A stretch of DNA of 64,000 bases. Source: Promethearchaeati archaeon SRVP18_Atabeyarchaeia-1 (GTDB lineage Archaea > Asgardarchaeota > Atabeyarchaeia > Atabeyarchaeales > Atabeyarchaeaceae). Of this stretch, positions 19,595 to 57,505 are shown piece after piece (positions within the stretch are counted from its first letter, which is position 1; the number at the start of each line of letters is the position of its first letter). Both the position numbers and the translations under genes were made by a program. The stretch is from assembly GCA_037308085.1 (NCBI GenBank), contig CP147779.1, forward strand, positions 832,001 to 896,000, in the 5' to 3' direction. The notes beneath the pieces were generated by a model, which saw only the letters and a program-made list of their open reading frames with translations, did no database searches and was not told where the DNA came from.

Positions 19595-20563
19595 CTATTC
19601 AAATGACTTCTTCAGCAGTTCAACATCGACTCGGCCAGCATGGTACAGTTTGCCAGTCTTCAAGTCATTGATGGTTATCTCGGCGGGTGCAAAGAGTCCC
19701 GGGTCGATCTTGTAGAAATCATATCCCGCTGCTTTGAATGTCTGATGGAATGGCCTGCCGTAGTCTTTTGAAGACGATGATGGGACTTTGTTTATTATGT
19801 CTGAGAGATCTTCTTCCTCAGCTTCGACGGTCAGGTATACTCTTCCTGCTGCAAGTATCACGTCGTTTGTTCTGCCCATTGCCTTTGCGGAATTTGGATG
19901 GATCGGTGCTATCGGTGCTACTCCACACGCGTGCCTTATCTTCTTGGGATCAAAGCCGACCTCGGACAGCTTGTGTATCCCAGTTTCCACGACTCTGCCG
20001 GAAATCTGAACGGAACCAACAACAGAGCTGGTGGGCGCGACAATCACATAAAGATCCGAGTACGAAACAAGACACTTGCCTGCTATTGTTTCAACTATAT
20101 CGTTGTCGACGGTGTGGTCCGTCTCAATCACTATCACGGCCTGTTTTGCCTTATCTTCATAGGAGATTTTCTCGTAGATCTCCTTGGGTTCCAGAGATAG
20201 AGCTCTCGCAGGGCCCGAACCCATCCCGAAGATCTTCTTTTCCTTGTCCTTTATTCTCCACCCCGCAAACTGGGAACCCAGCGTGGCGATGGCTGGGTAG
20301 CCTGTCTCCACAAAGATTGAGGGCAGAATTAAGCCTCCGCCGTAGTCAATCATCGATAGACTTGCTGTTCCAAGTCCACCTAGACAAACCTCAGTCACAA
20401 ACCTCCCCGCATTGAAGCTTCCCTTCGCTTCTATACCGGCATCAAGCACGGTAGCTCCGTTTTCCGTTCTTGTTACCTTGATCCTTAACTCATCTGCATA
20501 CTCTATCATTTCCTGCACTATCGGTAGAGCGCTAGAGTTGACACTAACATCATTTTCCGCCAT
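19595..20563 (-). CDS. mch: Methenyl-H4MPT cyclohydrolase
   Basis: SVN, CLGGLG, LGSQFAGW, GSGPARAL, AMGRTND and DFYKIDPGLFAPA. Confidence 0.97.
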   Translation of the reverse strand: MAENDVSVNSSALPIVQEMIEYADELRIKVTRTENGATVLDAGIEAKGSFNAGRFVTEVCLGGLGTASLSMIDYGGGLILPSIFVETGYPAIATLGSQFAGWRIKDKEKKIFGMGSGPARALSLEPKEIYEKISYEDKAKQAVIVIETDHTVDNDIVETIAGKCLVSYSDLYVIVAPTSSVVGSVQISGRVVETGIHKLSEVGFDPKKIRHACGVAPIAPIHPNSAKAMGRTNDVILAAGRVYLTVEAEEEDLSDIINKVPSSSSKDYGRPFHQTFKAAGYDFYKIDPGLFAPAEITINDLKTGKLYHAGRVDVELLKKSFE

Positions 20564-20754
20564 AGAATGGTGGTCTCCTCAAGTTAAGCCAGTTCCTAGA
20601 TTCGCTTCAAACACAAGAAATACCTTTCCTTGGTACCATCCTATATGGCTTTGGTATCGCAGGGATGACACCAGAGCGGCGATGTAGCTTATAATCAGTG
20701 CGAGGCCGCGTCTGCCACAGACCAGAAAAAGTAGAGGCAAGCAAATACATGATC

Positions 20755-21555
20755 CTAGGCTTTCAGGTAGAGTTCCCCTTTTCCACCGTCTGCGAGGTCT
20801 CCGACGAACTTATTGAAGGGTCCACTTATCTCTTCGCCGTCTTCCTCGCTAGTCCTTGTGCTCGGGACTTTTCCTTCGCTCTTGAAAGATGGGAGTACTT
20901 CAGCGATTCTGCCTAGGATGATGATCTTTCCTTTGGTCATCTCTCCGCCGGCTCGAGGAGCAGCGTCTTTGTGTACTACTATGACTCCACCTTTCAGGTG
21001 TATGCCTGCCATGGCGCCGACGCTGCCTTTGACGACTATCGTGCCATTGGACATCCATGAACCGATCTCGTTTCCGGCGTTTCCCTCGACGAGTATGGTT
21101 CCTCCTGAGGTTCCTCTCCACTCTCCGCGGTACGAGGCGCCCAGGTAGCTTCCGGCGTTTCCTTTGATTGTAATCTCGCCGCCTTTCATCAACGCCCCAG
21201 CCCAGTCCCCCGCGTTTCCTTCGACGGTTATCTTGCCGCCTCTCATGTTGTTGCCTACGTGCATCCCAGCGCTTCCTTTAATTATGATTTCGCCGGCAGT
21301 CATGCCTTCGCCGACTCTCTTAACGGTAGGGATGTCTCCCTGTATGACTATGCGGATATCTTCTGGCTTGTCGACCTTTATTCCCTTAACGTCGAAAACA
21401 TCCTTGAGTTTGAGCTGCCTGTTTCCTCTGAATATAGTTAGACCTAGTATTTGTTCTACTGTTTTTCCAGCAACTTTGTCTGGGCTTATTACTTCAGCTT
21501 CGATAGGGACTTTGCTATTGATACTCTTGGGGACGAGAATGATTTCTTGGACCAC
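20755..21555 (-). CDS. fwdC: Formylmethanofuran dehydrogenase subunit C
   Basis: PIEAEVISPD, GNR and Gly-rich GxxMxGGxIxVxGNAG repeats, FVGDLA. Confidence 0.95.
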   Translation of the reverse strand: MVQEIILVPKSINSKVPIEAEVISPDKVAGKTVEQILGLTIFRGNRQLKLKDVFDVKGIKVDKPEDIRIVIQGDIPTVKRVGEGMTAGEIIIKGSAGMHVGNNMRGGKITVEGNAGDWAGALMKGGEITIKGNAGSYLGASYRGEWRGTSGGTILVEGNAGNEIGSWMSNGTIVVKGSVGAMAGIHLKGGVIVVHKDAAPRAGGEMTKGKIIILGRIAEVLPSFKSEGKVPSTRTSEEDGEEISGPFNKFVGDLADGGKGELYLKA

Positions 21556-21607
21556 GAGATTTCTTCCTCCATCGAGTAGAATTCGGCGCGATCTACTATA
21601 TTATCCC

Positions 21608-23335
21608 TTACTTCTTTAGTTCCATCTTCACAGGAGCTGGGTTGACTAGGTATTCATCCTGTACAGGGTAGTTCTGGAGGTTTACCGTGTAGTATTTCAT
21701 GAATTTGTCCTTAAGATCTTCGTATACTGCCTTTGTCCAGTCATCAGGAACCTCTATGTCGAGCCAGTGGGTTCTGCCAATTGGCGAAGCTACAACCTCA
21801 CCATCCTTGACTACGATCTGGCCACGAGCAATTGTGTATTTGGCGTTCTTGAAGGCTTTCTCGACGGCTTCAGGGTTCTGGGATGGATTAATCTTGACAG
21901 GATCTAGATCATAAATCGCTACATCAGCGTCGGCACCCACACCTAAGTGCCCCTTATTCTTCATTCCAACGGCCCTGGCGATCCCCGCTCTTGTGATTAT
22001 GGCGATTTCGGAGATGCTGTATTCTCGGTCATAGTTGGGTAGTGTTGTCTTCGATGTCGCCCGCTCGTGTACTTCCTTTAGCATGGCTTCCCTTTTTTTC
22101 TTGCTGACTAACCAAGATATAATGGTTGGATAACTCGTGAAAGGTCCACCATTGGGATGATCAGTCGTCAAGTACATCCTCCAAGGGTCTTTGACTCCTA
22201 GCGCGATTTCGAGTCCCACGGCCCACTGGATTGCGTTGACTCCGGTTCCTTTCTTAATATAGACATATGGGACTATTCCTGCACTTGTTTCGAGTTCAAC
22301 GTCTGCGTTAACCCATTTGAGCCCAGTCAGTTTGTGCAGGTTATACTCCATTGGTCCATCGGCTGTCATAGTTGTTGTGTCGCCGAAGACAACCTGCCCC
22401 ATATCGACTGTGACGTGCTTGTGAGCATTAACATAATTAACTAGTTCATCCGCTGCAGATGAGAAGGTTTTCCAGTCTTCCCCCGCGTAAGCGTGGAACT
22501 GGGCGTGAGTCAGGTGAATGACGGCATCTCTACCGTTCCCTGATGAGTGCGCTATACCCTCCACAGAATTGAGTGTGTCTAGGGTTACTTTGATGTTGCC
22601 AGGGTGACCCAGGTTATTGGGGTGGACATGGATGGTGTGAGGCAGACGTAGTCTCTCATTGACCTTTGCAAGATTTGTTATAACCTCTCTTGGGCTGATG
22701 TCGAAGTAGGGCACCCGATCATCTATTGTATCGCAGTTCTTTCCCCACTTCCAACTCTCAACTCCACCAGGGTTGACCATCTTAATGGCATATCCCTTGG
22801 TAGCTTTGAGCATCCAAGCCACGAAGGCAGTTAGTTTATCAAGATCCTTGTCTTTTATGTAGTCGATTACAAACCAGTTTCCTCCGAAAAGAGGATAGCA
22901 CGCCTTGTCGACAATAGGCATGTCATTAAACTCTTCGTGGACATGTCTTGCTTTTAGCGGTGGCACCGCGGGCTCGATGACAGTCGTCCAACCCATTCTG
23001 GCGTACCTGTAGCCTGTGGTGTAAGTGGAGGGAATTGAATAACCGACACCGGATCTCATGCCTTCTTTCTTGAACTCAAAATCCTTTCTGTGATCCTCAG
23101 GTCTCAGGAGTCTTCCAGCATCAACCTTTGGTCCCGCAATATGAGTGTGAACGTCTACTCCTCCAGGCATTACGATGCATCCACTCGCATCTATGACCTT
23201 AGAATCAGTCGCTTTGACATGAGTCTCATCGACGATCCTGCCATCCTTGATGCAAACAGTGATCTTCTCTCCGTCGGCATTGTTCGCTGGATCGTAAACA
23301 AGACCATTCTTGATTATTATGGCATTGTTCGGCAT
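21608..23335 (-). CDS. fwdA: Formylmethanofuran dehydrogenase subunit A
   Basis: GGVDVHTHIAG, HVHPNNLG, THAQF, TMTADGP and TTDHPNGGPF. Confidence 0.97.
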   Translation of the reverse strand: MPNNAIIIKNGLVYDPANNADGEKITVCIKDGRIVDETHVKATDSKVIDASGCIVMPGGVDVHTHIAGPKVDAGRLLRPEDHRKDFEFKKEGMRSGVGYSIPSTYTTGYRYARMGWTTVIEPAVPPLKARHVHEEFNDMPIVDKACYPLFGGNWFVIDYIKDKDLDKLTAFVAWMLKATKGYAIKMVNPGGVESWKWGKNCDTIDDRVPYFDISPREVITNLAKVNERLRLPHTIHVHPNNLGHPGNIKVTLDTLNSVEGIAHSSGNGRDAVIHLTHAQFHAYAGEDWKTFSSAADELVNYVNAHKHVTVDMGQVVFGDTTTMTADGPMEYNLHKLTGLKWVNADVELETSAGIVPYVYIKKGTGVNAIQWAVGLEIALGVKDPWRMYLTTDHPNGGPFTSYPTIISWLVSKKKREAMLKEVHERATSKTTLPNYDREYSISEIAIITRAGIARAVGMKNKGHLGVGADADVAIYDLDPVKINPSQNPEAVEKAFKNAKYTIARGQIVVKDGEVVASPIGRTHWLDIEVPDDWTKAVYEDLKDKFMKYYTVNLQNYPVQDEYLVNPAPVKMELKK

Positions 23336-23490
23336 GTGTCCAAGACCACCCTATGTACGGTCAGCTTTTCTAGAAGGAATCTTTTCTTAATTGATAAGGG
23401 TTATGCTGCACGCCATAATCATTGTGCGCATTCATCATGACGACTCAGGCGATAATCTGAATTATCAAAGTGATAAACTTTTGTCAACTC

Positions 23491-24699
23491 TTATGTTTTG
23501 CCTAGGATGACCTGACCTGACCTTTGTGAAGGCTGGTGTAGGGCAAGTCCTGGCTTGTACCCCGTGAGCTTGCCGAGTTCAGATGCAAATCCATAAAATA
23601 TCCTCGATAGCTGGATGCCCTTTGGGCAGTTTTCGTCGCACTTTCCACAGTTGACGCACGTATCTCCCATGTGTACTAGTCTTGTTGCATGCAAGAGTAG
23701 TGGGTCAATGGTTTTTATCTTCTTAAGAAGAATACAGTCCTTGCACCAGCAAACTGGGCAGGCACGTACACAGAGTCCGCATTTGGTACAGGGGTCGAGC
23801 ATTGCTTTCAATTGAGCGAACCGCTTGTTTCCTTCAAGTCTGGCAAGTTCCTCATTCTGTTCTTCAAGTCTTTTGTCGGCGCCCTTCTCCATGTCCCTAA
23901 TGACTGAGTCTTTCTGCTCCTTTTCTGAGACATCCGAACTGCTTAGAGAGATTAGCATTCCTTGGCTTTTTGCCAGCTTGATACTCGTAGCCCCCCTCTC
24001 TGTGACGGGTCTAATCAAGATGTTTGGGTTTGCCGAGGGGCTCCTGCGCCAAGCTGAGATGCTGATGTCGCACGTAGGTGGCTCACGATTGCCACATCTT
24101 GTGCAGCATTCCCGCAGTCTCACGTCCTTGCCAAGCTTCAGTGGTGCAATAGTCCCCGAAGTTGCTTTGACCGCTATTTCACTGGGTGTTATCTCACAAG
24201 ACTCGATTTTCGATTGATCTATTCCTTGTTTCTTTATAGCGTTGGCTAAGTCTAGGAAAGACACGCTTCCTGGACATTCCAGGCCGATAATGAATAGGTT
24301 CCCAAACGATACCTGATTTCTCTTCGACAGTTCGACAAGCGCCTCAATCTCGCAAGGACGCGCTACTAAGGCGACCTTTTTGTCGAAGCATCCACCAAGT
24401 TGAGAGTGAATAATCTTGGGAACGCTAAGTAGTCTTGGTAGCCCGACCACCAGATATTGTGAGAGGAGACGGTAGTCGAGGCTCGAGACATCAGAAGAGG
24501 CTTCAACTGAGACAGCCTGCATTCCGCCGCCTGGCTTCTTCTCGGTGAAGGTCAGAAATGCATCCACGATCCCACCATCCAGCAATGCTTTGTAGAGCGA
24601 CTTGATCGTGGTTTCCACTGGACGACCGCGGTTTTCGTCACTGATTCGGCATGTGATGTACGATCTGTCCTCACTCACCTTCACCAACTCCATATTCAA
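23491..24699 (-). CDS. FdhB/FrhB-family (F420-interacting type) Fe-S subunit
   Basis: KVALVARPCEIEALVELSKRNQV...NLFIIGLECPG, LRECCTRC, CTKCGLCVRACPVCWC and HMGDTCVNCGKCDENCP, as in methanogen FdhB. Confidence 0.85.
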   Translation of the reverse strand: MNMELVKVSEDRSYITCRISDENRGRPVETTIKSLYKALLDGGIVDAFLTFTEKKPGGGMQAVSVEASSDVSSLDYRLLSQYLVVGLPRLLSVPKIIHSQLGGCFDKKVALVARPCEIEALVELSKRNQVSFGNLFIIGLECPGSVSFLDLANAIKKQGIDQSKIESCEITPSEIAVKATSGTIAPLKLGKDVRLRECCTRCGNREPPTCDISISAWRRSPSANPNILIRPVTERGATSIKLAKSQGMLISLSSSDVSEKEQKDSVIRDMEKGADKRLEEQNEELARLEGNKRFAQLKAMLDPCTKCGLCVRACPVCWCKDCILLKKIKTIDPLLLHATRLVHMGDTCVNCGKCDENCPKGIQLSRIFYGFASELGKLTGYKPGLALHQPSQRSGQVILGKT

Positions 24700-24735
24700 A
24701 GTTCGTAATCATAATCATCGTAAGGTGTATTTGTC

Positions 24736-24816
24736 CCCGCCATACCCTGGCAAACAGGGTAAGTCCCATTCATGACACATCTCTGTTTACTCATGATGGT
24801 CATCCAGCTTGGCGGG
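24736..24816 (-). promoter_or_regulatory. Eukaryote-like (type II) SECIS element overlapping the mvhD 3' end
   Basis: RNA reads CCCGCCA AGCUGG AUGA C CAUCAUGA GU AA ACA-GAGA-UGU G UCAUG(A)AUG G GA CUU ACCCUG-UUUGC-CAGGGU A UGGCGGG. It shows the AUGA/GA core, 11 nt to AA, an apical mini-helix with a GNRA loop and a closing helix CCCGCCA/UGGCGGG. Confidence 0.75.
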
Positions 24817-25224
24817 TTCTGCCTTGAAGGGGTTCTGGCCCAAAGACCGGATTATCTCGACGGCTGTCTTGACCACTTCAGCGAATTTCTCTCCTTCTGC
24901 TGATGAGCAATTGTAGAACTGAGCTCTGTCTGCGCCGATTCCCATGAACCCGAGGATCTGCTGTACATGCTTGACTTGGTTCTTCGCGATAATGTTTCCC
25001 TTTTCGTATTCGCAGGTTCCTTCGTATCAGCCTACCACTAGAACGCCATCAGCGCCTTTCCTCAGTGCCCTGATAATCAGATCTCCGTCGACACGCCCGG
25101 CGCAGGGCACACGGATAGTTCTCACGTTCGATGGGTACTGTATTCTTCCGATCCCTGCTGTGTCAGCCGCGCCATACCCTCATTTCCAACAGAGGAACAT
25201 TGCTATCTTTGGTTCGAAAGCCAT
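24787..25224 (-). CDS. mvhD: MvhD/VhuD [2Fe-2S] subunit, selenoprotein (U15, U66); absent from the ORF track
   Basis: [48 protein letters not shown]...GADGVLVVG-UGA-YEGTCEYEKGN...CSSAEGEKF...GQNPF; UGA at 25180-25182 and 25027-25029. Confidence 0.95.
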
Positions 25225-25250
25225 TTTCACGCGACACCTCTTTCAGTCGA

Positions 25251-27215
25251 CTACTGATCTGCGAATAATGTGTCTATGTATGCTTCGTATTGCTCGTCCT
25301 TGTAGTGTCTAAGAGTAATTGCTGATGAGGGGCATACCGCTGCGCAGGCGCCGCATCCTCTGCAGTCCATTTCATTGACGACGGCAATCCTGTCTTTCAT
25401 GGTTATGGCTCCGTACGAGCATATCTCTGCGCATAGGCCGCATCCAGAGCATCTCTTGTCATCAGCGATCGCGCGTACCAGGGTGATTTCGACTTGCTTG
25501 TTGATCATGGGTGTTCCAGCAGATGAAGCGGCTCCTTTCGCTGTCCCAACCGCTTCGGGGATTGACTTGGGACCTTGGGCAACGCCTGCGATGTACACGC
25601 CAAGCTTCTTTGTATCGACTGGTGCGAGGCACAAGTGGAACTCCTTGACAAAGCCGTCTTTGGCTCGCTCGATCTTCAAAAGTCCTCTTAGGTCATCCTG
25701 CCTTGCAGGGGGAATCATTGCAGTCGAGAGAACCACCATGTCGGCCTCCGTTTCAGAGACTTCGCTAGTGAGAGTGTCTTCAACGGAGAGCAGAAGATTC
25801 TTCGTCAAGGGATCTTCAACAACTTCAGCTACCTTCCCTCGCACGAACCTCACGCCCGCGTTTCTGGTCTCTCTGTTATACTCCTCGTGGTCTCTGCAGG
25901 GGGTTCTGATGTCGATGTAGTAGATCGTGGGCTCAGTATCTGGGTAGTAGTGTTTGACGTATTTGGCGTTCTTGATGGCAGTCATGCAGCAGACTCCGGC
26001 AGAGCAGTACTGATTAGCATCCATGCTTCGTGATCCTACGCACTGTATCATGGCTATTCTTTTGGGGGTCATCAAATCTGAAGGGCGAACTAGCTTGCCG
26101 CCAGTTGGACCATTTGGCGCGGTTATCCGCTCAAGTTCGAGTTGTGTTATGACGTTCTCGTATTTTCCATAGCCGTACTCGCCAATTGGCTTGTACTCCC
26201 TGAACCCTGTGGCAAGCAGGATAACTCCAACGTCTATCTCAACGGTCTTTGGCGCCTGGTCCAGGTTGATGGCATTAGGCTCGCACTTCTTCATGCAAAG
26301 CCTGCACTTTATGCATCTATCCATGTCGATCGTGTAAGTACTCGGCACTGCTTGCGGGAATGGTAGGTAGATAGCCTTTCTTGTTCCAAGTCCTTCGTCG
26401 AACTCGTTCGGCGCGAAGATTGGGCAGACATCGACGCAAGCCCCGCACCCATTGCATTTCTCCCGTTCTACGTATCTCGGTTTTTGTCTGACTGTGACTT
26501 TGAAATCGCCGACATACCCCTCTACTTTCTCAACTTCGCTGTAACTGAGTAGCTCAATGTTATGGTGATGTGCCAGTTCCACCATCTTTGGACCTAAGAT
26601 TCAGATTGAGCAATCATCCGTCGGGTAAGTCTTATTCAGTTTTGCCATATGCCCACCGATGGAAGGTTCACGCTCAACCAGGCACACTTTCATTCCCTTG
26701 TCAGCCAAGTCTAGTGCGGCTTGAAGCCCAGCGACTCCGCCACCAACAACAAGTGCCTTCTGAAGCACTGGTACAATCTTTGTCGGGATGCTCTCAAGCA
26801 ATTTTGCTCGTTCGACTGCCGCCCTGATTAGCGCCTTGGCTTTGATCATTGCTTCTATGGGCTTGTCAGTGTGAACAAAGGTGCATTGCTCCCTGATGTT
26901 TACGAACTCCAAGTAGCTTGGATCTACGCCAGCTTCCTTGAGAATAGTGCGGAACAGTGGTTCGTGAGTCTTAGGGGTACATGCCGCGACTATAACCCTA
27001 TCCAGCTCGTACTCCTTGATCTTGGCCTTGATTAGGGAGGCGCCAGACTCGGTGCAGAGAGAGATATTCTGTGCCGCGATTTTCACTCCTTCCAGTTCAC
27101 CAGCATACTCAACGAGAGCAGAAGTATCAATGACGCCACCGATATTTACTCCTCAACGGCAGATGAAAACACCAATGCTAAAAGATGATTTAGGCTCTCC
27201 CGTTTGTTGACTCAC
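25251..27215 (-). CDS. hdrA: Heterodisulfide reductase subunit A, selenoprotein (U21, U205), 654 aa
   Basis: One frame from GTG 27215: IGVFICR-UGA-GVNIGG (27153-27155), VAACTPKTHE, NIREQC, VVGGGVAG, TYPTDDCSI-UGA-ILGPKM (26601-26603), IQCVGSR, CSAGVCC and C-terminal ferredoxin motifs. Confidence 0.95.
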
Positions 27216-27277
27216 CCCCTAGGCTCCATTGACGTGCTTCGCAGGTAGGTTCCCGCGGAGCTACTTCCAGATTCCTA

Positions 27278-27952
27278 CTATGAGGTCAATTTCGTCGTAA
27301 GCTTCTTGACGGTCTCATCCCAGAAATCAGTGTGTTCTCCAGACCAGGTGACTTCATCGCGTGTGAGCTCCAGTGCGCCCTCCCCTGGGCAGGCATTAAT
27401 GCATGCGCCGCAGAAAAGGCATTTCTTATCGTCGATTGACACTTTCTCTGTCTTCTCCCATGGCTTTGATGACTTCGGAATAGTGATTGCCTTGGTTGGG
27501 CAAATATCCGCGCAAGTTGAGCATCCGCCAGGGCACTTGTCGACGTGTATAGCGATTCTGCCCTTGAAGAACTTGCGTGCCTTATTCCCTGTTCTTTCAC
27601 AGGTAACCTCTTCGTACTTCAACTCAGGAACTGCCTTGCCGTCAACGATCTGAAGCTTCCTTTCGCCGTTTATCTTAAACTCGATTGCCTGAAATGGGCA
27701 GATATAATCACAGACACCGCAGAAAGAGCACTTCCTCTCGTCAACCAGAACTGGAGGTGACTGAACATCCTTTTTCATTGATGCTCCCACAGGACCTCTA
27801 GCAATGGCTTCCTTTGGGCAGGCGGTGACACAGACGCCACACCCGGTGCACTTCTCTCGATTAACGTTAAGCGAAAGCGTAATGTTTAGCATTCTAAGTG
27901 ATGCAGTAACTTTCGACGGATCAACGGTCCTTGTGTATTGGGGTAATGCCAT
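27278..27952 (-). CDS. fwdF: FwdF-like polyferredoxin (4 clusters)
   Basis: Four CxxCxxCxxxCP-type motifs, including CPGGCSTCADICP; fwd context. Confidence 0.75.
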   Translation of the reverse strand: MALPQYTRTVDPSKVTASLRMLNITLSLNVNREKCTGCGVCVTACPKEAIARGPVGASMKKDVQSPPVLVDERKCSFCGVCDYICPFQAIEFKINGERKLQIVDGKAVPELKYEEVTCERTGNKARKFFKGRIAIHVDKCPGGCSTCADICPTKAITIPKSSKPWEKTEKVSIDDKKCLFCGACINACPGEGALELTRDEVTWSGEHTDFWDETVKKLTTKLTS

Positions 27953-27971
27953 TACTTCACATCCTCCCTAC

Positions 27972-28229
27972 TCACTCTTTGGGCTTTTCGGGTTGTTGAG
28001 AGGGAAACCTGATCTCTAGTGCGTGGCGCGGGCATGCCTCGATGCACATTCCGCAGCCGTCACATAAATCTTGGTTTGTTACTCCGAGTTTGCCGTTCTT
28101 TACTCTCAACACCGCGTTTGATTCCTGTTCTGTAACTATCTTTCCAGTCTTGTTGACTGGGCATGCGATCGTGCAATCGCCGCAGCCGTTGCACTTTCTC
28201 TCAGAGATGGCTATTTGATAGGATGTCAA
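27972..28229 (-). CDS. fwdG: FwdG-like 2x[4Fe-4S] ferredoxin
   Basis: CNGCGDCTIACPVN...LRVKNG...CDGCGMCIEACP. Confidence 0.75.
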   Translation of the reverse strand: MTSYQIAISERKCNGCGDCTIACPVNKTGKIVTEQESNAVLRVKNGKLGVTNQDLCDGCGMCIEACPRHALEIRFPSQQPEKPKE

Positions 28230-28715
28230 TCAGGGGCGCCTCCGAGTTGACGCGATAATTCGCACTATCAATAGTGATTTGCGATTCCATTCATATGACG
28301 CTTCCAATAGGTAAGAAACCCTTCGATTGTTCTGCAAGTCTTGTCAGCGCAAGGTAAGCTATCTTTGTGACTTGATTTGGTTTTCGTCATTTTAAGGTTA
28401 ACTAAGAACTTTTCCATCACTCAATTCGGTTCAAGGGAAGCCATTATTCTTCAGATGTTGGAGGTATCGCATCGGCTTTTATACCTTTTTCAGGGGAATG
28501 AGTGTCATTCGTGCCGAGGTGAGAAGTGCGTCTTCTACTCTTGTCGTTCGCAAGTGGCAAGCTCTCGGGACCCGCCTACAAGCGCGTGATAGGAGACCGT
28601 CCAAGTCCTGCGGTGGCAACTGATGTAACAATCCTATGATACACTTTATTAAATCAATCAGTGGGCGAAAGTCATTTATAACAAGACTTCATCTTTTCGA
28701 TGCTGGTTTTATATT

Positions 28716-29055: not shown

Positions 29056-29460
29056 TTGCCTGAGAAGTCGGTTGAGGTTGTCATAATAACTGGCAGAACG
29101 GTGGATCAAGGGGTTGCGATAGAGGGCGGTAAACTCTCGCAGTCCTATGTGAAGGCCGCTGCCATATGCTACATGGATCCAAACGACATGAAGAAGATAG
29201 GGGTCATAACTGGAGACATCATTACAGTCAAGACGAACGCCGGGCAGGTAATACTACGGGCTGTCAAGTCTGAAGATACGCCGCATGTCGGCCTTGTATT
29301 TATTCCCATGGGTCCGTGGGCTAACCAACTTACTAATCCGGAGACCGATAGTATAGGCATGCCATCATTCAAAGGTATGAAAGGCATAATAGAGGCAACC
29401 CAAGGTGGAAAGATACTGGACGCCGCCACACTAGTCAAGACCGCTTTCCACAAGGCGTGA
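29056..29460 (+). CDS. fwdD: Formylmethanofuran dehydrogenase subunit D
   Basis: ITGRTVDQG, VFIPMGPWAN and GMPSFKG. Confidence 0.95.
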   Translation: MPEKSVEVVIITGRTVDQGVAIEGGKLSQSYVKAAAICYMDPNDMKKIGVITGDIITVKTNAGQVILRAVKSEDTPHVGLVFIPMGPWANQLTNPETDSIGMPSFKGMKGIIEATQGGKILDAATLVKTAFHKA

Positions 29461-29489
29461 GTGGCATTAACACGAGGTGTAAGTGAGAT

Positions 29490-30806
29490 TTGTCACAAAA
29501 GGTAATCGACTCAGTCGTATGCCCGTTCTGCGGCTCTCTTTGCGACGATACGGAAGTTGTAGTCAAGGACGGCAGAATAATCGAAACCCGGAACATGTGC
29601 ATCATGGGAACTCAAAAGCTCTTCGCAAGTCAAGCACCCGAAAGAATCAGAAAACCGATGATACGGGAGAACGGTAGCTTCAAGGAGGTCACACTTGACC
29701 AAGCGATCCAGAGGGCTGCGGAGATACTGGTGAAGTCGGAGAGACCACTTCTTTATGGCTGGAGTTCAAGTGAATGTGATACCAGCAGGGTAGGTTTTGA
29801 GCTTGCTGAAGAGGTTGGCGCTATTATTGATTCGACTGCTTCGGTCTGCCATGGACCTTCCGTTCTCGCCATCCAAGATGTTGGTCTGAGCAGTTGTACT
29901 CTGGGCGAGGTGAAGAACCGAGCTGACCTTATAATATACTGGGGTTGCAATCCTCAACATGCTCACCCAAGACACATGAGCAGATACACTTCATTCGTGA
30001 GAGGTTTCTTCAGAGACAAGGGAGTAAAGGAACGGAGCATAGTTGTGGTAGACGTTCGCAGAACTGATACGGCGAAGCTAGCAACCCACTTTATCCAAAC
30101 CGAATATGACAAGGATTATGAATTACTGGGTGCCCTGAGAGCTGTAGTCAACGGCTATGACATTCTCACCGACAAAGTTGCGGGTGTTCCAAAAGAAAAG
30201 ATAATAGAGCTTGCTAGCATGATGAAGAACTGCGGGTTCGGCATAATCTTCTTTGGCATGGGGTTGACTCAGAGCACTGGGAAGCATAGGAACATAGATA
30301 ACGCGATACAGCTTACCACAGACCTCAACAAATACACAAAGTTCCTGATTATGCCGATGCGTGGTCACTACAACGTGACTGGCTTCGGCGTTGTCGCATC
30401 TTGGATCAGCGGGTACCCGTACGCTGTTGACTTCAGCAGGGGGTATCCGCGGTATAATCCAGGAGAGACAACGGCTAACGATGTCCTGCAGAAAGAGGAG
30501 ATTGATGCGGCGCTTGTCGTGGCATCGGACCCAGTTTCTCATTTTCCGAAGAAGTCGATCGAGTTCTTGGCAAAGATACCTTTGATAGTAATCGAACCAC
30601 ACCCGACTCCAACTACTGAACTTGCTGATGTCGTTATCCCTCCGGCGGTATCGGGAGTGGAAGTTGAGGGGACCGCGTACCGGATGGATAATGTTCCAAT
30701 TCGGCTGAGAAAAGTCGTCGACGCGCCAGACGGCCTCCTTCCAGACAGAGAACTAGTTCACAGAATACTCGAGAAGGTTCGGGAACTGAAGAAGAAGAGA
30801 ACCTAG
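29490..30806 (+). CDS. fwdB: Formylmethanofuran dehydrogenase subunit B (Mo/W, Cys ligand)
   Basis: CPFCGSLCDD, ASVCHGPS, HAHPRHMSRY, PMRGHYNV and GTAYRMD. Confidence 0.97.
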   Translation: MSQKVIDSVVCPFCGSLCDDTEVVVKDGRIIETRNMCIMGTQKLFASQAPERIRKPMIRENGSFKEVTLDQAIQRAAEILVKSERPLLYGWSSSECDTSRVGFELAEEVGAIIDSTASVCHGPSVLAIQDVGLSSCTLGEVKNRADLIIYWGCNPQHAHPRHMSRYTSFVRGFFRDKGVKERSIVVVDVRRTDTAKLATHFIQTEYDKDYELLGALRAVVNGYDILTDKVAGVPKEKIIELASMMKNCGFGIIFFGMGLTQSTGKHRNIDNAIQLTTDLNKYTKFLIMPMRGHYNVTGFGVVASWISGYPYAVDFSRGYPRYNPGETTANDVLQKEEIDAALVVASDPVSHFPKKSIEFLAKIPLIVIEPHPTPTTELADVVIPPAVSGVEVEGTAYRMDNVPIRLRKVVDAPDGLLPDRELVHRILEKVRELKKKRT

Positions 30807-56692: not shown

Positions 56693-57505
56693 GTGAAACT
56701 AGACAAGAGAGAAACGGCTGGTATTCAAATGCCAGGAGAGCGCATCTGGAAATACATTACCGACGCCTTAAGCAAAGATCACGTGCTGCATCTTTCCCTC
56801 ATAGACCCGGACCCATTAACGGTGACGGCTGAGCAAGCTGGGAAGATGGCAGAGCTCGCTGCAGAAGCTGGCACTGATGGAATAATGGTCGGGGGATCAA
56901 CGGCGTTTGGCATACTTGATGAAACTGTGAAAGAAATTAAGTCAAGGGTGGACGTACCCGTAATACTTTTCCCCGGGAACGTAAACGGGCTGACAAAGTA
57001 CGCTGACGCAGTCTTCTTCATGAACCTTCTCAATTCACGTAACACCTACTGGATGATGGAAGCAGCGATGCTCTCAGCCCCCGCAGTAAGAATGCTGGGG
57101 CTCGAAACTATCTCGATGGCTTACCTTGTCGTTGAACCTGGGGGTACGGCAGGATGGGTTGGAGAGGCCCGTCTTATACCCAGGGACAAACCCAAGATAG
57201 CTGCTGCCTATGCTCTGGAGGCCGAGATGGTAGGATACAAGCTGGTATACCTAGAGGCTGGCAGTGGCGCTAGCGCCTCAGTCCCGCCAGAAATGGTCAA
57301 GCTAGTTTCGGGCATTATAGAGTTGCCTCTCGTTGTCGGTGGAGGCATTGTCACGACCGAGCAGGCAGTGGCATTAGCGAAGGCTGGCGCCAAGATCATA
57401 GTGCAAGGCAACATAATAGAGAAGACCGTGATTAAGGACAAGGGCAACCTGCTCAAGGAGACCATAACGCGGATTAAGGAAGAAGGTAAGAAGAAAGGGC
57501 ACTAG
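56693..57505 (+). CDS. Geranylgeranylglyceryl phosphate synthase
   Basis: LIDPD, MVGGS, LFPGN, LLNS, YLEAGSGA and VGGGI. Confidence 0.95.
   Translation: MKLDKRETAGIQMPGERIWKYITDALSKDHVLHLSLIDPDPLTVTAEQAGKMAELAAEAGTDGIMVGGSTAFGILDETVKEIKSRVDVPVILFPGNVNGLTKYADAVFFMNLLNSRNTYWMMEAAMLSAPAVRMLGLETISMAYLVVEPGGTAGWVGEARLIPRDKPKIAAAYALEAEMVGYKLVYLEAGSGASASVPPEMVKLVSGIIELPLVVGGGIVTTEQAVALAKAGAKIIVQGNIIEKTVIKDKGNLLKETITRIKEEGKKKGH

Follow-up and report, generated by a model that had tools for sequence, protein, structure and literature searches.

A eukaryote-like SECIS element at the 3' end of vhuD in an Atabeyarchaeia genome, very likely shared with the upstream gene hdrA

The hdrA-vhuD locus and its SECIS element

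Investigation of a 64-kb stretch of DNA (the window), positions 832001-896000 of the single-contig 2.81-Mb genome of an archaeon of the Atabeyarchaeia (G000), revealed a selenocysteine insertion sequence (SECIS) element on the minus strand at the 3' end of vhuD (mvhD), the gene directly behind hdrA. Both genes contain two in-frame UGA codons for selenocysteine (Sec), and the element is very likely an Asgard eukaryote-like SECIS (lokiSECIS), of the minor type II-like form, that is shared by hdrA and vhuD. The closest public relatives of G000 are a Promethearchaeati metagenome-assembled genome (LC30) and Candidatus Atabeyarchaeum deiterrae; comparisons within the Atabeyarchaeia were made between three genomes (G000, G001, and G002). 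The features of the locus are as follows, all on the minus strand.

27215-25251: hdrA, 654 codons, stop UAG; Pfam FAD and 4Fe-4S domains
27155-27153 and 26603-26601: Sec codons U21 and U205 of hdrA, aligned with Cys in two paralogs
25230 (GTG)-24787: vhuD/mvhD, 147 codons, with an alternative ATG at 25224; Pfam FlpD, E 4e-45
25182-25180 and 25029-25027: Sec codons U17 and U68 of vhuD, aligned with Cys in the Cys paralog
24816-24736: complete SECIS element, from sequence, constrained fold, and covariance models
24816-24810: helix I 5' strand CCCGCCA, pairing with UGGCGGG at 24742-24736 (7 bp)
24803-24800: AUGA core, read from the sequence
24799-24791: helix II 5' strand CCAUCAUGA, pairing with UCAUG-A-AUGG at 24775-24766
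24790-24776: apical region GUAAACAGAGAUGUG, 15 nt, made up of GUAA, a possible mini-stem, a GAGA loop, and a terminal G
24790-24787: unpaired GUAA, containing the vhuD stop UAA (24789-24787)
24786-24784 with 24779-24777: possible 3-bp mini-stem ACA/UGU, closing the GAGA loop (24783-24780)
24775-24766: helix II 3' strand UCAUG-A-AUGG, with one bulged A
24765-24764: GA core, read from the sequence
24761-24743: side hairpin UACCCUG..CAGGGUA, 7 bp, between the GA core and the helix I 3' strand

Helix II is composed of nine Watson-Crick pairs and one bulged A on its 3' strand, 11 nt separate the AUGA from the unpaired AA, and in the predicted fold the side hairpin converts the internal loop into a three-way junction. 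With only the AUGA kept unpaired, the minimum free energy (MFE) structure is this three-helix shape, at -32.7 kcal/mol. The original prediction for this locus had described an AUGA...GA core with 11 nt to an unpaired AA, a mini-helix with a GAGA loop, a closing helix, and a side hairpin, and this anatomy was matched base for base. The element was also said to have its 5' arm inside the last codons of mvhD, and an overlap with the vhuD 3' end is indeed present, the last 7-10 codons and the stop of vhuD falling within the SECIS. The spacer between hdrA and vhuD measures 26 nt to the ATG, as had been stated, and 20 nt to the GTG, while the distances from the four UGAs to the AUGA are 2352, 1800, 379, and 226 nt, the largest corresponding to the reach of about 2.35 kb proposed for hdrA U21.

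Conservation and covariation of the element

The comparison covered 25 vhuD genes containing in-frame UGA, taken from G000 and 14 relatives belonging to several Asgard families, and an AUGA...GA hairpin was found in the same place at the vhuD 3' end in all 25 Sec-vhuD loci examined. Fourteen canonical elements (9-bp stem, 11-nt loop), none of them from G000, align without gaps; 92.9% of their helix II cells are paired, a value reached by none of 500 shuffles and compared with 36-47% in slid controls, and all nine pairs show double-sided changes. Helix II therefore covaries strongly in the test across mvhD 3' ends that had been proposed with the original prediction.

Two covariance models were used, R1, built from the 14 canonical elements, and R2, rebuilt from 25 R1 matches, again with none from G000. 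In searches of the 64 kb (both strands, filters off) the SECIS was the top match of the window with either model, with 17.1 bits and an E value of 0.22 for R1 and with 27.8 bits and an E value of 0.002 for R2, for which the runner-up scored 10.9 bits. On the whole 2.8-Mb genome, R2 returned the SECIS as its sole match (E 0.09). The best window match of both models is placed at 24809-24761, with the AUGA and the GA on the models' invariant columns, and R1 also retrieves elements outside its training set in other genomes where they are expected. Further matches of R1 and R2 at 56913, 48893, 12131, and elsewhere scored at most 12.4 bits and were taken as noise.

When the three Atabeyarchaeia genomes are compared, two compensatory changes are seen in helix II (U-A to A-U and U-A to C-G) and a single one, in G001, in the side hairpin (C-G to U-A). 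The motif GUAAAC is invariant across the three, and the mini-stem is weakly supported in G002. The structure is thus both conserved and covarying, as opposed to the lack of conservation in orthologs that had been named as grounds for refuting it. Rfam scans returned only C/D-box and long non-coding RNA matches at chance level; a match to the C/D-box small RNA sR36 inside hdrA (25803-25851, minus strand; 18.3 bits against a gathering score of 55, E 0.28) is most likely a chance match.

Probable dependence of hdrA on the element behind vhuD

Regarding the two UGA codons of hdrA, no second SECIS-like element was detected on the sense strand between 24803 and 28400 using R1, R2, and a generalized AUGA/GA descriptor, which as a positive control retrieves all four SECIS of G000. 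Models and descriptors thus agree with the earlier remark that no other convincing SECIS lies near hdrA, and the search for an element dedicated to hdrA, the discovery of which would have spoken against sharing, gave none on that stretch of the sense strand. The methanogen-type GAA/A element was likewise absent from 23300-28400 on both strands as judged by a descriptor with a genome-wide rate of 0.02 per 5.1 kb. Downstream of 24803 the AUGA/GA descriptor gave two matches only, at chance level. One, at 23401-23435 (AUGA...AA, 8 bp, one defect), was rejected, with its AUGA lost in G001 and 0.7-3 such matches expected by chance per 5 kb; the other, at 24689-24718, was rejected as a weak, chance-level match that overlaps the next start codon.

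A survey of Sec-containing hdrA genes in 41 genomes (G000 and 40 relatives) yielded 30 full-length hdrA matches with in-frame UGA, and, with one exception, the next gene downstream of each is a vhuD that contains at least one UGA. This exception is found on contig C59 of genome G010 (L077, 31500-37500, minus strand), where about 405 nt are missing relative to a paralogous locus on contig C45 of the same genome; C45 has an intact hdrA-vhuD pair, and the two loci are 80-86% identical. The deletion spans the hdrA stop codon, the spacer, and most of vhuD. The remaining Sec-hdrA keeps both Sec positions (the equivalents of U21 and U205), is fused in frame to the last vhuD codons, and terminates at the UGA of the AUGA, and the SECIS behind it (L074:933-976) has the top score of the set, 44.3 bits. 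Since the SECIS remains intact with hdrA as the sole gene to serve, this locus argues that the SECIS serves hdrA. The proposal that one SECIS may recode four UGAs in two cistrons is thus backed by conservation, by the lack of a second element, and by the deletion locus; from these genome comparisons, action of the SECIS behind vhuD on the two vhuD and the two hdrA UGAs across the cistron boundary is supported.

UGA codons, Sec machinery, and other selenoprotein genes

All four UGAs line up with Cys in the Cys-type hdrA and mvhD paralogs of G000, and position U205 of HdrA is the canonical Sec position (PMC4989117). The four UGAs are conserved in the orthologs of G002, at 80-83% protein identity, and the assembled part of the locus in G001 contains vhuD with two TGA and a partial hdrA with one TGA. 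The hdrA gene at 25251-27215 is the sole Sec-containing copy of hdrA in G000.

Regarding Sec biosynthesis and insertion, G000 encodes SepSecS, SelB/EFSec, a PSTK-like kinase, and a Sec-containing SelD. A tRNA-Sec gene was not detected in G000 by Aragorn or with RF01852; a tRNA-Sec has been reported for the source genome (PMC11291895). With default settings Aragorn found only 9 tRNA genes on the 2.8-Mb genome and, when introns were allowed for, 22; such counts would fit a lineage whose tRNA genes are heavily interrupted by introns.

The selD, vhuU, and SelW/Rdx-like genes of G000 each have their own SECIS at the 3' end, whereas hdrA has none. The SECIS of selD (G000:C1:941264-941348) and that of vhuU (approximately 920560-920620), both outside the window, are type II-like, have an enclosing helix that begins at or near the stop codon, and have a 3' side hairpin of one and the same type; vhuU uses the UGA of the AUGA as its stop codon. 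The SelW/Rdx-like selenoprotein gene, also outside the window (G000:C1:454184-454420), has 78 codons with a CxxU motif (FCGV-U-G), and its SECIS at 454440-454478, 19 nt past the stop, has the AUGA/GA core and a 15-nt loop starting from GUAAAA.

The vhuD stop codon and stop codon usage

In G001, vhuD ends with UAG 1 nt ahead of the AUGA, and in G002 it ends with UAA 4 nt ahead. The G000 gene is seven codons (KLDDHHE) longer than either and runs through the AUGA and the helix II 5' strand (window 24787-24807 compared with L001:2120-2145 and L002:3425-3440). Its open reading frame (ORF) extends 17 nt past the start of the AUGA, which is the deepest overlap among the parsed loci. The vhuD of G000 has lost the ancestral stop codon and run on to the UAA of the conserved GUAAAC loop. 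Because GUAAAC is kept where vhuD stops before the AUGA, the stop codon is not what the SECIS was built on, and the earlier idea that the UAA stop supplies the AA motif does not hold, GUAAAC being invariant in relatives with an earlier vhuD stop.

Regarding stop codon usage, hdrA ends in UAA or UAG in all eight parsed loci. The original prediction had listed seven genes around the SECIS as ending in UAG or UAA and a first gene as ending in UGA; these codons are correct, and their value as support is weak. UGA accounts for 38% of stops in long ORFs genome-wide, and the absence of UGA from seven stops has a P of approximately 0.03, compared with 0.12 for at most one in eight, both computed post hoc. 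Stop codon avoidance was rejected as meaningful support owing to the post hoc nature of the test and to the UGA-ending ferredoxin gene upstream. The ferredoxin UGA stop (27972-27974) is shared with G002 (L002:~285-290), where it overlaps the fwdF start as ATGA.

Putative transcription unit and neighboring genes

The minus-strand gene order is ferredoxin, FwdF-like polyferredoxin, hdrA, vhuD/mvhD, FrhB/FdhB-like gene, fwdA, fwdC, and mch, including the following neighbors of the hdrA-vhuD pair, all on the minus strand.

28229-27972: small 2x[4Fe-4S] ferredoxin, stop UGA; from ORF and Pfam
27952-27278: FwdF-like polyferredoxin, stop UAG; from ORF and Pfam
24699-23491: FrhB/FdhB-like gene; Pfam FrhB_FdhB_C

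The start of the FrhB/FdhB-like gene lies 37-43 nt past the SECIS, with no T-run of at least 5 in the gap, and on the sense strand from 28500 to 19400 the sole T6 lies approximately 40 nt past mch. Of 12 loci compared in relatives, 10 have a FrhB-like homolog at 50-180 nt past the SECIS, and in other loci, mostly of low GC content, a T5-T6 run lies directly after the SECIS. Since there is no T-run between the SECIS and the FrhB-like gene, the element is probably intercistronic rather than located in a 3' untranslated region.

Co-transcription of hdrA and vhuD is inferred from the short spacer of 20-26 nt and from the absence of signals resembling terminators. In a wetland metatranscriptome (run X1), two perfect contigs lie within hdrA (26476-26713 and 26837-27066), one of which spans the U205 codon; the hdrA-vhuD junction and the SECIS are uncovered and three other runs gave no matches, so that these data are uninformative on co-transcription.

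The hdrA-mvhD pair and the FrhB/FdhB-like gene sit amid fwdF, fwdA, fwdC, and mch (19595-28229, minus strand), and a divergent fwdD-fwdB is located at 29056-30806 on the plus strand, its FwdB having Cys and not Sec. This gene set recalls the electron-bifurcating Fmd-Hdr-Fdh supercomplex of Methanospirillum. An AT-rich motif, TTATCAATTAAGAAAAG, is found at 23397-23381 (minus strand), 46-62 nt upstream of the fwdA start; it is nearly invariant in three genomes within an otherwise diverged 155-nt spacer and possibly serves fwdA-fwdC-mch as an internal archaeal promoter. A hairpin with compensatory changes is present immediately upstream of the motif, at 23401-23435.

Comparison with known SECIS elements

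The lokiSECIS of Lokiarchaeota was described by Mariotti et al. (2016; PMC4989117), who reported that in HdrA-VhuD pairs one element alone is present, behind VhuD, and that the pairs are most likely polycistronic, that up to six UGAs over approximately 2 kb are served, that the element may overlap coding sequence, that hdrA avoids UGA stops in these pairs, and that a few vhuD lokiSECIS show extra pairing in the loop. The model was generalized with 227 Asgard genomes by Huang, Xiao and Zhang (2024; PMC11227280), who defined eSECIS-like elements of types I and II and found neighboring hdrA and frhD (vhuD) to share one SECIS. The cross-cistron action presented as a new inference in the original prediction had thus already been stated in both papers.

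The element in G000 shares with the lokiSECIS the AUGA immediately before a 9-bp stem, the GA immediately after it, where a lokiSECIS has either GA or AA, the A-rich start of the apical region, and its last G. It is likewise found at vhuD after that gene only, overlapping its end, as a single element for hdrA and vhuD, with a short intergenic gap, a non-UGA hdrA stop, and HdrA Sec positions that include the canonical one near residue 200; it was, moreover, detected with an independent profile. Within the apical loop AAA and the terminal G are present. The element differs from the lokiSECIS in having 15 nt instead of 11 nt in the apical region, where a 3-bp mini-stem may form, and in its one bulged A; its host belongs to the Atabeyarchaeia and not to the Lokiarchaeia, and it probably lies between cistrons instead of at the transcript end, with the vhuD ORF entering the apical loop.

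The type II model of Huang et al. (PMC11227280) asks for a GA_[G/A]A core and an upper stem 7-15 bp long that has no more than two mismatches; 2-8 bp are allowed for the mini-stem, 4-12 nt for the bulge, and 2-6 nt for the apical loop. The corresponding values of the present element (GA_GA, 9 bp, 3 bp, 5 nt made up of GUAA and G, and 4 nt of GAGA) all fall within these limits, so the type II geometry claimed at the outset stands in every numeric respect. In the survey, type I is the major form for hdrA and frhD, and its text makes no mention of Atabeyarchaeia (PMC11227280).

With the eukaryotic type II SECIS (RF00031), the element has in common the AUGA...GA core, an AA about 11 nt further on, a mini-stem, and distant upstream UGAs. 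Differences are a helix II of 9 bp compared with approximately 12-15 bp, the absent Rfam match, the location in a presumably polycistronic prokaryotic mRNA with overlap of the coding region, a third helix 3' of the core, and the lack of a known SBP2 in the host. The SECIS of methanogens (Methanococcus; PMC11881835) similarly lies in the untranslated RNA beside a selenoprotein gene and serves two distant vhuD UGAs, and the vhuD elements of Methanococcales likewise carry AUGA and GAC; however, the GAA/A asymmetric loop with G-C clamps was not found in 23300-28400.

Predicted three-way junction layout and likeness to the k-junction

When the AUGA is held unpaired, approximately 19 of the 25 vhuD elements fold as helix I, helix II, and a 3' hairpin. 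A strict layout descriptor, requiring at least five perfect pairs in helix I and at least four in the side hairpin, was matched by 21 of 28 Asgard SECIS compared with 12.6% of flank-shuffled controls. The helix sequences of this layout are wholly different between lineages, helix I and the side hairpin occur in different registers among genomes, and the selD, vhuU, and SelW-like SECIS of G000 have the same layout of closing helix and side hairpin. As modeled in these folds, the closing helix with a 3' side hairpin is a family feature of Asgard SECIS. The terms 'hairpin' and 'junction' are not applied to the side hairpin in the main texts of PMC4989117 and PMC11227280. A loose three-way-junction descriptor applied genome-wide gave 31 matches compared with 21 in the reversed genome and was rejected as too unspecific for discovery.

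In predicted secondary structure, the side hairpin at 24761-24743 occupies the placement of the third helix of a k-junction (Wang et al., 2014; PMC4005666), the likeness being that the side hairpin of the SECIS follows the 3' GA and precedes the 3' strand of helix I. The SECIS differs in being known as a predicted secondary structure, whereas the k-junction is defined by tertiary contacts and by coaxial stacking of its third helix on the C helix. That the Asgard SECIS is a k-junction, with a K-turn core, a closing helix, and a covarying 3' side hairpin, which is intercistronic in a conserved hdrA-vhuD-frhB-like unit, is a tentative reading that falls a little short of being probable.

Proposed mechanism and alternative explanations

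In the mechanism that we propose, hdrA and vhuD would be translated from one mRNA. The AUGA and GA would form the sheared G.A/A.G core of a kink-turn at the base of the 9-bp helix, GUAAA would be displayed at the top of helix II, and the closing helix and 3' side hairpin would frame the core as a three-way junction. The elongation factor specific for Sec might then be recruited, along with Sec-tRNA(Sec), by the folded SECIS, perhaps by way of a putative K-turn-binding adaptor, and this complex would be handed to ribosomes paused at the four UGAs 226-2352 nt upstream, leading to Sec insertion in place of termination. Without a signal of its own, hdrA would rely on the SECIS behind vhuD. Each ribosome that reaches the end of vhuD would open helix I as well as the 5' half of helix II, and the SECIS would refold between passes.

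Several observations weigh against a shared SECIS of the lokiSECIS kind at this locus. The unconstrained MFE fold traps the AUGA in an AUGAC/GUCAU helix (-33.7 kcal/mol, z -2.4); the two folds are near-equal in energy, so thermodynamics alone cannot choose between them and energy was not taken as evidence. The score with the canonical-only model R1 is modest (E 0.22), because the loop has 15 nt instead of the canonical 11 and helix II has a bulge. No Rfam SECIS family was matched in the 64 kb, 5.1 kb, or 151 nt searched, either at the gathering score or at E values up to 10, which agrees with the published failure of eukaryotic SECIS tools on Asgard elements (PMC4989117; PMC11227280). With the vhuD stop in the apical loop, every termination on vhuD requires the ribosome to unfold the SECIS, opening helix I and helix II in its 5' half. 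A lokiarchaeal SECIS was inactive in Methanococcus maripaludis (PMC11881835), and the function ascribed to lokiSECIS in Asgard archaea rests on genomic association. Furthermore, the ferredoxin gene approximately 3.2 kb upstream, apparently in the same operon, ends in UGA, which would sit uneasily with an efficient recoding of all upstream UGAs by the SECIS; if the ferredoxin gene is co-transcribed, a UGA stop is tolerated 3.2 kb from the SECIS.

The element might instead serve vhuD only, with the hdrA UGAs recoded by a separate signal that escaped detection, such as a structure in the coding region or another SECIS type. Distances of 1.8 and 2.35 kb across a stop and a restart are without experimentally proven precedent, and the descriptors and models used here see AUGA/GA or GAA/A elements only. 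However, the sense strand from 24803 to 28400 gave no candidate with a descriptor that retrieves all four G000 SECIS, each Sec-hdrA examined lies directly upstream of a Sec-vhuD with SECIS, the G010 locus with the vhuD deletion retains the SECIS for hdrA alone, and no hdrA-specific element was found in the published surveys (PMC4989117; PMC11227280), all of which makes service to vhuD alone unlikely. It could also be argued that the structure is not a recoding signal, the association with UGAs being incidental. K-turns are bound by L7Ae in many archaeal RNAs, and the structure might be such a K-turn/L7Ae site, a hairpin for mRNA processing or stability, or a translational operator of the FrhB-like gene, the start of which it precedes by 37-43 nt, between two cistrons. 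The lack of a known SBP2 homolog in Asgard archaea (PMC4989117) points in the same direction. Against this, the same core of AUGA, A-rich apex, GA, and three-way frame is present behind the UGA-bearing selD, vhuU, and CxxU genes of G000, the vhuD-type model finds no match elsewhere in that genome, and many relatives have a T-run and no gene after the SECIS; a function other than recoding is accordingly considered very unlikely.

That the UGAs are true stops or recent nonsense mutations, hdrA and vhuD being split or decaying genes and the hairpin a chance match, is the least credible explanation and can hardly be upheld. The genes do appear fragmented under translation table 11, and intact Cys-type paralogs in G000 could substitute for them; yet the same four UGAs recur in G002 and in the assembled part of G001, full-length frames are open, the UGA positions coincide with columns of catalytic or conserved Cys, perfect RNA contigs cover the region of the U205 codon, and the Sec machinery is complete. 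For practical purposes, gene decay is refuted by this conservation.

Implications

The preferred reading, a single lokiSECIS-like element shared by hdrA and vhuD, is the same as the published HdrA-VhuD model of 2016 and 2024 and is for that reason a correct and ordinary finding. It is known in kind and very probably known in the source genome too: the source genome paper reported multiple eukaryote-like SECIS with HdrA among the selenoproteins (Valentin-Alvarado et al., 2024; PMC11291895), and its Supplementary Data 11 is a table of SECIS coordinates covering this genome. The window adds the Atabeyarchaeia as a further lineage, in which eukaryote-like SECIS and Sec-HdrA had already been recorded (PMC11291895). 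The refinements offered here are that the vhuD ORF was secondarily extended into the SECIS, that the element is probably intercistronic in a conserved hdrA-vhuD-frhB-like unit, and that a vhuD-deletion locus supports its action on hdrA.

If the k-junction reading is true, the simple two-helix, eukaryote-like hairpin drawn in the literature would be insufficient, the SECIS would refold after each ribosome and recode UGAs that lie upstream, in another cistron, at a distance of over 2 kb, and the vhuD-deletion locus of G010 would be natural proof that hdrA alone keeps the SECIS under selection. Asgard SECIS are the proposed ancestors of eukaryotic SECIS, a significance that belongs to the 2016 and 2024 papers, and a SECIS whose action crosses a cistron boundary and spans more than 2 kb would have no parallel among recoding signals.

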